Source of the DNA: Escherichia coli
GTDB lineage: Bacteria > Pseudomonadota > Gammaproteobacteria > Enterobacterales > Enterobacteriaceae
Length of the DNA stretch: 64,000 bases
Strand: one strand, 5' to 3'
Assembly: GCF_013315695.1 (NCBI RefSeq)
Contig: NZ_CP054353.1
In this document: piece after piece, positions 28,593-33,383 of the stretch
Layout of the letters: each line of letters begins with the position of its first letter
Position numbering within the stretch: position 1 is the first letter of the stretch
The notes under the pieces: model-generated
Databases searched by the model: none
What the model saw: the letters and a program-made list of their open reading frames with translations, nothing else
Told to the model about the DNA's origin: nothing
Made by a program: the position numbers and the translations under genes

Positions 28593-30983
<2,391 letters not shown>

Positions 30984-30987
30984 ACCT

Positions 30988-31287
30988 ATGGCGCTTACAA
31001 AAGCTGAAATGTCAGAATATCTGTTTGATAAGCTTGGGCTTAGCAAGCGGGATGCCAAAGAACTGGTTGAACTGTTTTTCGAAGAGATCCGTCGCGCTCT
31101 GGAAAACGGCGAACAGGTGAAACTCTCTGGTTTTGGTAACTTCGATCTGCGTGATAAGAATCAACGCCCGGGACGTAACCCGAAAACGGGCGAGGATATT
31201 CCCATTACAGCACGGCGCGTGGTGACCTTCAGACCCGGGCAGAAGTTAAAAAGCCGGGTCGAAAACGCTTCGCCCAAAGACGAGTAA
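30988..31287 (+). CDS. ihfA: integration host factor alpha
   Basis: 99 aa, [35 protein letters not shown]. Confidence 0.97.
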
Positions 31288-31300
31288 TCTGATCTAACTA

Positions 31301-31327
31301 AAAAGGCCGCTCTGCGGCCTTTTTTCT
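31301..31327 (+). terminator. intrinsic terminator after ihfA
   Basis: aggccgctctgcggcct hairpin plus T6. Confidence 0.8.
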
Positions 31328-31556
31328 TTCAATAACCAATTGATTTATAATGTTTTATATCTCTTCGTTCCACGATGTGTCCACATTTAGTGGGGGGAGG
31401 GGAGTAAGCCCGCTACATTGTGGGCTTTGTCTTATAGTCTGATCACTGCTTCAAGTCGGTGAGGACACCAAAAAGAAAACCCGTAGTTTTTATGCTGCGG
31501 GTTTGTTTCATGTCTGTGAGATAGGGTGCCTTATCGACCTTACCCTGGCAACCGAT

Positions 31557-31583
31557 TGACGGGGGATTGCTCCCCCGTCGCGG
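31557..31583 (-). terminator. GC hairpin 3' of the hok-like ORF (candidate mRNA terminal stem-loop)
   Basis: gacggggg-attgct-cccccgtc, an 8-bp perfect stem that begins 6 nt after the hok-like stop. Confidence 0.5.
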
Positions 31584-31588
31584 TTTCC

Positions 31589-31729
31589 TTACTGCTTACA
31601 CTGTAAGAACGCCGCAAACTCCGCTCCCCAGAAGCTCATCCGTATTTCGCACAGTGAACCGTGCAGCATCCAGATGATGAGGATTGCCGTCACGCAGAAC
31701 GTGATGGCCGTAAGCGATTTTTGCGACAT
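31589..31729 (-). CDS. hok: Hok/Gef-family type I toxin (46 aa)
   Basis: An ATG at 31729 with AAGGAG 8 nt upstream opens MSQKSLTAITFCVTAILIIWMLHGSLCEIRMSFWGAEFAAFLQCKQ. One TM helix plus the SLCEIR...AAFL.CK signature of Hok proteins. Not in the track (<60 aa). Confidence 0.75.
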   Translation of the reverse strand: MSQKSLTAITFCVTAILIIWMLHGSLCEIRMSFWGAEFAAFLQCKQ

Positions 31730-31859
31730 AGCACTTGCTCCTTTTCCGGAGAGGCGCTAACCTTTCACTTGTCAAGGTAATGCGGTTAGGGCCTCGGTTA
31801 AACAGAGATGTTTTCCGGGGCCTTTCCACATCTGGCCTTCGGGTATTCCCTCCGACCAT
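31596..31859 (-). CDS. mok-like overlapping reading frame (translational coupler of hok); start uncertain
   Basis: The track's 87-aa ORF overlaps the whole hok-like ORF in another frame, as mok does in R1 hok/sok. No independent protein similarity recognised. Confidence 0.4.
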   Translation of the reverse strand: MVGGNTRRPDVERPRKTSLFNRGPNRITLTSERLAPLRKRSKCYVAKIAYGHHVLRDGNPHHLDAARFTVRNTDELLGSGVCGVLTV

Positions 31860-31957
31860 CAGCCGAAAGGCACCCGCGCGTAATTTACCGTTTCCTGAGT
31901 AAATTCTCCAAATAAAATTCCACAGTCAAAAGTACAGAAACAAAAACAGGTATGTGA

Positions 31958-32215
31958 TCACATCGCCGGAAGTGGCAGCGACATCTGCGCATCACCACGG
32001 TGTGACGCTGGCAGGCTCTGCCACGGAATATCCGGTGAAGTACCACCGCTGCGCTTTACGGTGAGTTTTTCGAAGCTCTCCAGCGTCGAGAAGGAGAGAC
32101 TGCATTCGGGATTGTTGCACTGGTAGAGCTTCTGCCGGACAGTGCGTGAGTCGTTCGCGGCGCGGCTTGTGCGGGTGCGCGTGCTCGCACCACAAAAAGG
32201 ACACGGAAAAGACAT
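31958..32215 (-). CDS. ogr: Ogr/Delta-family zinc-finger late transcription activator
   Basis: MSFPCPFCGASTRTRTSR...YQCNNPECSLSFSTLESF carries the CxxC-N22-CxxxxC pattern of P2 Ogr. Lies downstream of D as in P2. Confidence 0.85.
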   Translation of the reverse strand: MSFPCPFCGASTRTRTSRAANDSRTVRQKLYQCNNPECSLSFSTLESFEKLTVKRSGGTSPDIPWQSLPASHRGDAQMSLPLPAM

Positions 32216-32267
32216 GACGGAGACCTCCTTTTTTTCATGAAGGTGAATCTCCGTGATTTTATTCCTG

Positions 32268-33383
32268 TTATTCCTGTTGCGCTATCCATTCAGGAATTTT
32301 TAATTCCAGCTCAAGCCGCGTGGTGAAGCCGCTGTCGTCGATGTTGTGCTCCACCTTCGCCAGTACCCAGTCCTCCGCGTCGATGTCACTCTTGAAACCG
32401 GATACCGTGCCGCGCATTTCGGGGTACAGGTCGGGGCGACCGCGTGCCAGCGTGATGGAGAACTCAGCCGCGCCGCGCTGTAGCTGCTGCCATTTTGCCG
32501 CCGCTGCACGGCGTGCGGCCTCCTCGTTTTTGAAGGTTTTACGCATGACGTACACATTGCCGTCTGCGCCCTCCATGTAATCCCCCTCGCGGCTGCTGCT
32601 TTTCTCCTTTTTTGTTTTTTGGGCAGAACCACGTTTTGTCACGCTGACTTTTTTCTTTTTGCCAAAGTCCAGATCCAGCCAGTAAGCGCGCACCCCCGTG
32701 TACGCCTGCCGGTCTGCAATGCGGAAGTGATGGCTGTCACCGCTGCTGCGGGTGATGGCGAATGAGGGCAGCGGCTTTCCGCTGGCGCTCACCCCCTGTC
32801 CGGGCACGATGAAAAGCAGGGCACCGTTTTTGACGGTGGCGATGGCGCCCAGCATGTCCGCCATGCGCGTGAGAAACGAGATGTCACTTTCCTCCGTCTG
32901 GTCGGCGTGGTCGATTTCCACCTCTGCCAGCGAGGCGCTGATTTGTGCCTTCAGTCCGTAGCGGTACGCGATGGCAGAAACAACCTGTCCCACCGTCACG
33001 TCATGCCAGGACACTTCACGCTTCACGTTGAACTCCTGCCGGAAGTCTGCGCTGCTGGCCGTGATGGTGAGCCTATCCGGTGGTCCCTCATGTGTCACCT
33101 CGTCAACGATGAAGGTTCCCTTGTCTGTCAGCGCCTCACCTTTCCAGCCCAGCGCCAGACCCAGCGTCTGTCCGCGCTTCGGGAGTTGCACTCCGCCGTC
33201 GCAGTCGTCAATCGTGAGGGTTAACTGGTCCGCCTCAAATCCCCGGTTGTCGGTCATCGCCAGCGAGATGACCCGTCGGGTCAGCGCCGCGTTTTCCGTG
33301 CCCTTAACCGTGATGGAAAAATCAGGGATCTTCACGCACTCTGACAGACCGTTCAGGTATCCGCTTACGTCCGCAGGGTTCAT
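32268..33383 (-). CDS. P2 gpD-like tail/late control protein
   Basis: Track ORF 32268..33566. The internal start MNPADVSGYLNG gives 371 aa. Similarity to the gpD family is judged by eye. Confidence 0.85.
   Translation of the reverse strand: MNPADVSGYLNGLSECVKIPDFSITVKGTENAALTRRVISLAMTDNRGFEADQLTLTIDDCDGGVQLPKRGQTLGLALGWKGEALTDKGTFIVDEVTHEGPPDRLTITASSADFRQEFNVKREVSWHDVTVGQVVSAIAYRYGLKAQISASLAEVEIDHADQTEESDISFLTRMADMLGAIATVKNGALLFIVPGQGVSASGKPLPSFAITRSSGDSHHFRIADRQAYTGVRAYWLDLDFGKKKKVSVTKRGSAQKTKKEKSSSREGDYMEGADGNVYVMRKTFKNEEAARRAAAAKWQQLQRGAAEFSITLARGRPDLYPEMRGTVSGFKSDIDAEDWVLAKVEHNIDDSGFTTRLELELKIPEWIAQQE

Follow-up and report, generated by a model that had tools for sequence, protein, structure and literature searches.

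One of the closest described systems to the locus analysed here is the hok/mok/sok (parB) locus of plasmid R1. Its elements tac, fbi, ucb and dcb have been defined and assembled into a model of alternative stems (PMC9841398; for the R1 elements, see also PMC4147584), and Sok represses hok by blocking the translation of mok. The present locus, which lies in a 64-kb window (the whole stretch of DNA that was analysed), is predicted to share with R1 a Hok/Gef toxin, a long structured leader, the tac/fbi, tac/ucb and GAGG/dcb stems, a stem-loop that marks the 3' processing stop, a Sok -35 hexamer overlapping the hok Shine-Dalgarno sequence (as also seen in hokC) and a Sok RNA composed of a 5' tail followed by a GCCUCG...CGGGGC hairpin. 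It differs from R1 in the mok frame, a defining R1 feature which is not conserved in the present subfamily and is missing in most alleles, and in the toxin itself, which has 46 aa and ends in ...AAFLQCKQ, whereas R1 Hok has 52 aa and ends in ...AFMAYESGK. In addition, the R1 locus is carried by a plasmid, while the present one resides in a prophage and has an Rfam score below the gathering threshold.

Among the chromosomal loci, the nearest named homologue of the toxin is HokA from E. coli K-12 (43% identity, compared to 30% for HokC), and the K-12 hokA and hokC loci are flanked by insertion sequences. With hokC, the present locus shares the -10/+1 layout (TATAAT-AGCGGC-GGGTGC) and the arrangement of Sok, and with the annotated SokC it shares the 5' tail, the GCCUCG...CGGGGC hairpin and a short pyrimidine tail. 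The sokC gene starts just inside mokC, which is an in-frame extension with an AUG located 8 nt after GAGGCC; such a start is missing in the present locus.

Genes of the hok family are known to be enriched in prophages. For one of these systems, hokW-sokW from the Stx2 prophage Sp5, a toxin and an antisense antitoxin have been demonstrated experimentally, and the system has been shown to aid phage release after induction (PMC8621323). Like the present locus, hokW-sokW is a prophage-borne hok/sok system; however, HokW is a HokD-like peptide of 51 aa. The subfamily studied here is represented in both Sp5 and 933W by a further, distinct copy (81% DNA identity), which adjoins lom and is outside the scope of that study.

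The toxin gene and its prophage setting

A preliminary description of this DNA had proposed an unannotated type I toxin-antitoxin locus of the hok/sok kind, located between ogr and the prophage end. It was built around a minus-strand ATG at 31729, preceded 8 nt upstream by AAGGAG and opening a 46-codon ORF. Minus-strand reading over 31400-32300 and the ORF listing show that all these elements are present, including the peptide that had been given:

31589..31729, minus strand: hok coding sequence, 46 aa plus stop, MSQKSLTAITFCVTAILIIWMLHGSLCEIRMSFWGAEFAAFLQCKQ (ORF listing, Pfam, PHROG); the stop codon is 31591-31589
31738..31743, minus strand: hok Shine-Dalgarno sequence (AAGGAG, 8 nt upstream of the start codon), paired in the folds with an upstream CCUCU anti-Shine-Dalgarno
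31958-32215, minus strand: ogr, encoding an Ogr/Delta zinc-finger protein (Pfam Ogr_Delta, 50.4 bits), upstream neighbour of hok with its stop at 31958

The assignment of the peptide to the Hok/Gef family was borne out by the Pfam HOK_GEF profile (PF01848), which matches residues 7-44 (profile positions 5-42 of 42) with a score of 29.9 bits, above the gathering cut-off of 22 (E 4.1e-7). Furthermore, phrog_251 ('MokW-like host killing', PHROG 251, classified as a phage moron) matches the full length of the peptide, residues 1-46, with 80.6 bits (E 1.3e-22). These two matches argue that the 46-codon ORF is no chance ORF. The best NCBIfam match is the HokA model (NF007290), with a score of 34 bits, well below its equivalog cut-off of 89; judged by its sequence, the peptide is a relative of HokA without being HokA itself. 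With 46 aa it falls within the size range of the family (about 45-55 aa). Its hydrophobic stretch, the presumed single N-terminal helix, spans approximately residues 7-22 (TAITFCVTAILIIWML), and the pattern C..T...LCE...E is found. When compared to a published logo of 1264 Hok peptides (bioRxiv 10.1101/2025.08.07.668861), six of the seven residues conserved at more than 80%, the initiator Met aside, are readable in the peptide, namely C12, T14, L26, C27, E28 and E37. Across 26 distinct coding sequences from the subfamily, synonymous changes make up 50% of the codon differences when these are read in the hok frame versus 14-18% in the other two frames, which indicates that the hok frame alone is under purifying selection at the protein level.

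Regarding the genomic setting, the pheT-ihfA region of E. coli K-12 is 100% identical to positions 30840-31329. This identity ends at 31329, directly past the ihfA terminator, placing the junction between chromosome and prophage at 31329/31330. P2-like tail, capsid and replication-sized ORFs extend to at least ~62 kb, and btuC was not found in the 64-kb window. K-12 identity up to the ihfA terminator and P2-like ORFs beyond it thus indicate a P2-like prophage inserted behind ihfA, with the locus at its ogr-proximal end. The same order of ihfA, a Hok/Gef gene and ogr is found in E. coli O104:H4. Homology among copies taken from unrelated contexts spans 31893 to ~31514-31524, which delimits a unit of ~370 nt coinciding with the predicted hok mRNA. 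The preliminary description had considered a unit of roughly 400 nt filling the interval between the ogr stop and about 31550; the ogr stop is indeed at 31958, but the other end of the unit as given falls short, as the fbi element reaches 31524. Collectively, the Pfam and Rfam matches and the evidence for tac/fbi and Sok support its central proposal, a type I toxin-antitoxin locus of the hok/sok kind between ogr and the prophage end. The cassette is very probably a non-essential 'moron' located between ogr and the attachment end of the P2-like prophage.

In contrast, the designation 'unannotated', with the novelty it implied, has to be abandoned. It holds true only for a track of ORFs of at least 60 aa, owing to the 60-aa floor of that track, and ORF tracks with such a floor hide genes such as hok. 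Equivalent loci are annotated in RefSeq. The gene, its family, its distribution and its toxicity are all on record already, the last by the exclusion statement of a preprint. The identical peptide is RefSeq WP_000078916.1 ('Hok/Gef family protein') and the public protein collection lists the exact peptide under this label for at least 1000 contigs. It is also construct LRP137/72_1621 of Table S2, assigned to Hok 'cluster 72' (Escalera-Maurer et al., 2026; bioRxiv 10.1101/2025.08.07.668861). Among the 45 constructs tested in that preprint, only 19_179, 60_1482 and 69_1540 are named as non-toxic (bioRxiv 10.1101/2025.08.07.668861); since 72_1621 is not one of these three, the identical peptide is by exclusion reported as toxic. 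At the protein level, no difference thus separates the present locus from cluster 72, WP_000078916.1 or phrog_251, and its genomic setting is that of O104:H4. As the preprint treated neither Sok, mok nor the structure of the mRNA, the RNA layout described below is an addition to this knowledge and not the discovery of a locus.

The 400-nt unit was matched in 1749 of 5426 complete E. coli genomes (about a third), in up to nine places per genome and almost always beneath an annotated Hok/Gef gene. It adjoins ogr in P2/P88-like phages and lom in Stx phages, with further homes on IncI1 and IncF plasmids and, separately, beside ykgM. Isolated P88-like phages (Xuanwuvirus) carry the unit, viable isolates with it include P88, Chuche and PhiR44_2, and a plasmid copy of the subfamily in E. 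albertii has a broken hok ORF. A literature search for a hok gene adjoining ogr returned nothing. The scan of species-representative genomes yielded only six loci, three of them with implausible taxon labels and probably due to contamination; it therefore added no diversity for covariation analysis. In viral contigs, 80 loci were found with an identical protein in all of them, many being clipped 3 nt past the stop codon, and these loci served to document leader variation only. More generally, prophage catalogues often clip the cassette at the hok stop codon, with the loss of the 3' regulatory element.

The predicted hok mRNA and its antisense RNA

The following RNA features were identified or predicted around the toxin gene:

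31882..31911, minus strand: putative hok promoter, with -35 TTGGAG (31911-31906), an 18-nt spacer, -10 TAAATT (31887-31882) and ACGCGC before +1
31524..31875, minus strand: predicted body of the hok mRNA, ~352 nt, from +1 GGGUGCC (Rfam model position 1) to the end of fbi
31861..31875, minus strand: tac element, mRNA nt 1-15, pairing with fbi in the full-length or ucb in the truncated RNA; nearly invariant in 40 sequences
31817..31829, minus strand: ucb-like element (GUGGAAAGGCCCC), mRNA nt 47-59, alternative partner of tac; in the closed form its CCCC is base-paired to GAGG
31792..31795, minus strand: conserved GAGG, mRNA nt 81-84, positional equivalent of the R1 and hokC mok Shine-Dalgarno sequence, followed by no conserved start codon
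31751..31755, minus strand: dcb-like GCCUC, mRNA nt 121-125, pairing with GAGGC (nt 81-85) in the open form (consensus and truncated fold)
31550..31585, minus strand: 3' stem-loop, with a 9-bp core CGACGGGGG/CCCCCGUC(G) extended by AACCG/CGGUU (fold)
31524..31538, minus strand: fbi element (GGUCGAUAAGGCACCC region), which pairs with the 5'-terminal tac
31470..31504, minus strand: terminator-like hairpin and U-run downstream of fbi (sequence and fold)
31735..31763, plus strand: Sok promoter, with -35 TTGCTC (31735-31740), a 17-nt spacer and -10 TAACCT (31758-31763)
31771..31832, plus strand: predicted Sok RNA, ~55-62 nt, starting near the G at 31771, with a hairpin at 31790-31822 and a CUUUCC tail; ends inferred

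Among 15 aligned loci drawn from different contexts, 14 preserve the -10 hexamer (TAnAnT) of the putative hok promoter together with its 6-nt gap to GGGTGCC. A consensus promoter scan called no promoter on either strand, including the hok and Sok candidates, and the hok promoter is accordingly regarded as weak and inferred. Both promoters are proposed from comparison with relatives and not from consensus strength.

A scan with Rfam, suggested in the preliminary description, returned a full-length match (1-157) at 31875-31716 to RF01794, the sok family, whose model describes the leader strand of hok. The match is significant (E 2.1e-9), but its score of 48.4 bits is under the gathering threshold of 59, which points to a divergent relative of the seed sequences. 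The long-range tac/fbi pairing that had been anticipated on the minus strand was recovered in the minimum free energy fold of 31875-31515 (-162.1 kcal/mol, z -6.8), in which nt 1-15 pair with 31538-31524. As MAFFT places the 3' tails of divergent copies out of register, column-wise covariation of tac and fbi was dropped and replaced by duplex folding of each sequence. With this approach, the end pairing from nt 1 was found to be kept in all 30 distinct combinations of tac and tail, with dG values of -24.7 to -35.9 kcal/mol and z-scores of -3.2 to -5.9 versus shuffled tails, and the 3' tails differ in sequence and in the position of bulges. Both the RNAalifold consensus of the alignment and the fold of the 3'-truncated RNA pair nt 1-14 with nt 47-59, i.e., tac with ucb.

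An 8-bp GC hairpin had been described 6 nt past the hok stop codon. It is the extended stem (CCG...CGG) which starts at this position, whereas the 8-bp core itself, GACGGGGG/CCCCCGTC, lies 9 nt past the stop. The proposal that it matches the 3' stem-loop of hok mRNA is upheld by the fold and by compensatory changes in four base pairs, GC being replaced by AU in two and seven sequences, and AU by GC or CG in three and six. In R1, the equivalent stem-loop protects the processed mRNA; the present one is probably the stop for 3' exonucleolytic processing. Downstream of fbi, the hairpin at 31470..31504 is common to the P2/P88-like copies and absent from copies in other contexts; the consensus scan reports it on the plus strand only. 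In P2-like contexts, the primary transcript likely ends there.

On the opposite strand, Sok had not been placed in the preliminary description, which expected it around 31760-31870. A promoter and a hairpin can now be assigned as predictions, the promoter starting at 31735, just below that range. The R1 Sok promoter has the layout TTGCGC-17-TATCCT, and the present locus has a similar one. The Sok -35 hexamer overlaps the complement of the hok Shine-Dalgarno sequence, and 23 of 26 distinct alleles have both hexamers unchanged at the 17-nt spacing while their flanks vary. The predicted RNA is complementary to hok mRNA nt 44-105. Its 5' tail of ~19 nt is variable, and the target of this tail sits in a hairpin loop of the open hok mRNA fold. 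The Sok hairpin (-27.5 kcal/mol, z -4.4) is formed by all 25 parsable alleles, with two versions of the inner stem (10+5 bp or 16-18 bp), and the tail which follows it, just CUUUCC, is a poor intrinsic terminator. In silico, an antisense Sok encoded in cis, with its own promoter and complementary to the hok leader, is thus predicted at this locus.

The mok frame and rival readings

The preliminary description had also assigned a mok role to an 87-aa ORF (31859..31596) overlapping hok in another frame. The overlap is real, but start, frame and codon evidence speak against the role. If the locus were a canonical hok/mok/sok system, this ORF or a shorter version of it would be mok and Sok would repress hok by blocking mok translation, as in R1. 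In favour of this reading, no stop codon interrupts the overlapping frame of the window allele between mRNA nt 2 and 280, and GAGG, the equivalent of the R1 mok Shine-Dalgarno sequence, is conserved; the sole UUG, at nt 101-103 (31775-31773), lies under the predicted 5' end of Sok as the mokC start lies under SokC. However, this UUG is 16 nt away from GAGG and has no Shine-Dalgarno sequence, and most alleles lack it. The ATG of the 87-aa ORF, at nt 17, is located in the tac stem, beyond the Sok target, also has no Shine-Dalgarno sequence and reads ACG in 3 of 15 aligned copies. Furthermore, 20 of the 38 distinct leaders (obtained from 100 loci) contain no ATG, GTG or TTG upstream of the hok ATG in either non-hok frame, and half of the 14 representative alleles with an intact hok stay start-less even when near-cognate codons are allowed. 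Such start-less alleles include the isolated phage P88 and a Stx-phage variant whose peptide is in the test set of the preprint. The hok frame itself is closed upstream by a conserved UAG at nt 117-119. Finally, only 14% of the codon differences in the frame of the 87-aa ORF are synonymous, compared to 50% in the hok frame, so that it looks non-coding, and its product has no Pfam or PHROG family match. Start context, start-less leaders and non-coding substitutions led us to reject the 87-aa ORF as mok. From these comparisons of alleles we conclude that this ORF is incidental and that the subfamily appears to have no conserved mok, and a canonical hok/mok/sok arrangement is considered improbable.

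The locus might instead be a decayed or silenced hok relic, in which an intact ORF persists without working regulation or expression, like the IS-inactivated hok loci of K-12. Inactivation is frequent among hok loci on chromosomes, K-12 hokA and hokC adjoining IS150 and IS186, and the broken ORF of the E. albertii plasmid copy and the weakness of both promoters by consensus are in line with such a decay. In the present case, however, no insertion sequence interrupts the unit. The -10 hexamer, tac, ucb, the Sok promoter and hairpin, the Shine-Dalgarno sequence, the ORF, the 3' hairpin and fbi are all intact and match the commonest allele. In addition, the hok frame shows purifying selection, the viable phages named above retain the unit, and the identical peptide is reported as toxic, by exclusion among the preprint constructs. 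Taken together, this makes a relic very unlikely. Even less credence can be given to a small hydrophobic ORF arisen by chance in an intergenic spacer and devoid of function: its small size is all that speaks for this explanation, while family matches with E values of 4e-7 and 1.3e-22, strong structural z-scores and a discrete unit of ~370 nt recurring in 1749 of 5426 complete E. coli genomes oppose it so strongly that it is almost certainly wrong. By far the most probable explanation is a complete type I toxin-antitoxin cassette of the hok/sok type, resembling that of R1.

Proposed regulation and significance

A mechanism can be proposed for this cassette. A weak promoter would produce a stable hok mRNA of ~350-400 nt from the minus strand. 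In the full-length RNA, pairing of tac with fbi would keep the leader closed and the hok Shine-Dalgarno sequence paired, allowing neither translation nor Sok binding. Slow 3' trimming back to the GC stem-loop would then remove fbi, after which tac would pair with ucb and the leader would open. At this stage, a short (~60 nt) and constitutive Sok RNA from the plus strand would pair with leader nt 44-105 and block expression, the Sok-hok duplex being probably marked for RNase III. Should the supply of Sok stop, upon prophage loss, transcription shut-off or perhaps infection, the 46-aa Hok would be made, insert into the inner membrane and kill the cell. The RNA half-lives, the processing and trimming steps and the role of RNase III that this mechanism supposes are drawn by analogy from R1 hok/sok (PMC4147584; PMC9841398) and from hokW-sokW (PMC8621323). 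Likewise by analogy, prophage retention, help in lysis and phage exclusion may be considered as candidate roles.

Since mok is not conserved, Sok may act through the RNA switch and decay and not through a leader peptide. It is conceivable, albeit as a tentative proposal which we hold to be somewhat less probable than its opposite, that the cluster 72 Hok (46 aa, ...AAFLQCKQ) belongs to a natural mok-less variant of hok/sok, in which GAGGC is the link of an RNA relay and not a ribosome-binding site. In such a relay, the capture of ucb by tac would free GAGGC, which would in turn capture GCCUC and thereby release the hok Shine-Dalgarno sequence; Sok would sequester GAGGC and trigger decay, with no leader peptide involved. 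In a model of ten alleles, the unpaired probability of the hok Shine-Dalgarno sequence was 0-0.02 in the full-length and in the Sok-masked truncated RNA for all ten, and accessibility rose in the truncated RNA for six of them, where the sequence was partly freed. For the window allele, the result depends on the 3' end which is chosen: no rise was obtained in the ten-allele model, whereas the open form was obtained with an end at 31549.

As a discovery, this locus carries little weight, its toxin being annotated in RefSeq, catalogued and carried by roughly one in three complete E. coli genomes. In this respect it is ordinary, a real but already catalogued cassette of the Hok/Sok type. The regulatory RNAs of the widespread cluster 72 prophage subfamily had not been previously described, and the apparent absence of mok from this subfamily would offer a cheap test of how far the translational-coupling model of R1 reaches.

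Relatives of the window hok locus in Stx phages and plasmids

The subfamily of the window hok locus is also represented in Stx phages, where a second hok locus (DNA identity 81%) adjoins lom. This locus is without annotation in the original VT2-Sakai record (AP000363) and, in the 933W record (AF125520), only the hypothetical protein L0129 lies beneath the match. It differs from hokW-sokW, the hok/sok locus of the Stx2 prophage Sp5 which has been studied by experiment. On an IncF plasmid of E. albertii, a further copy is annotated as a hok/gef family protein. Its stop codon directly after the hok ATG, together with a deletion within the coding region, marks it as a decayed copy despite this annotation.

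Homologous loci outside the window
L004/L005 1501-1873, and AP000363 44534-44906: hok locus adjoining lom, Shigella phage 75/02 Stx and VT2-Sakai
L015 378-479: hok copy of E. albertii plasmid pEA5_1, 102 nt, annotated 'hok/gef family protein'
L103 352-561: mokC/hokC of K-12, as annotated

The preliminary description had proposed an out-of-frame 87-aa ORF as the mok of the window. In the K-12 annotation, mokC consists of MLNTCRVPLTDRKVKEKRA followed by HokC and is an in-frame N-terminal extension of hokC; it does not overlap hokC out of frame.

Catalogue boundaries and taxon labels

Numerous IMG/VR prophage contigs (L026, L028, L032 and about 45 other loci) stop exactly 3 nt past the hok stop codon. 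The boundaries set in this catalogue therefore remove the hok 3' UTR and, with it, both the 3' hairpin and fbi, the 3' element pairing with the mRNA 5' end. Copies were also retrieved from assemblies labelled as a Planococcaceae MAG (L016), Vagococcus sp. (L017) and Xanthomonas pisi (L020), with protein identities of 98%, 98% and 72%, respectively, and most likely represent enterobacterial contamination of these assemblies.

The prophage-chromosome junction

Comparison with K-12 showed that the pheT-ihfA match (100% identity) stops at 31329, immediately past the ihfA terminator, and no btuC was found within the window. Together, these two observations place the start of the P2-like prophage, which reaches past ~62 kb of the window, at 31330.

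Features around the junction
31229-31373, plus strand: match to STnc540, an enterobacterial sRNA (Rfam; 41.1 bits, gathering threshold 38)
31406-31427: first terminator-like hairpin, in the interval from the end of the hok mRNA to the chromosome junction
31470-31504: second terminator-like hairpin in the same interval, U-run on the minus strand

The second hairpin is probably the end of the hok primary transcript; the first could be part of the attachment-site arm. The STnc540 match spans the ihfA 3' end and terminator, and its alignment decays beyond the prophage junction; insertion of the prophage may therefore cut short the stretch with homology to this sRNA.
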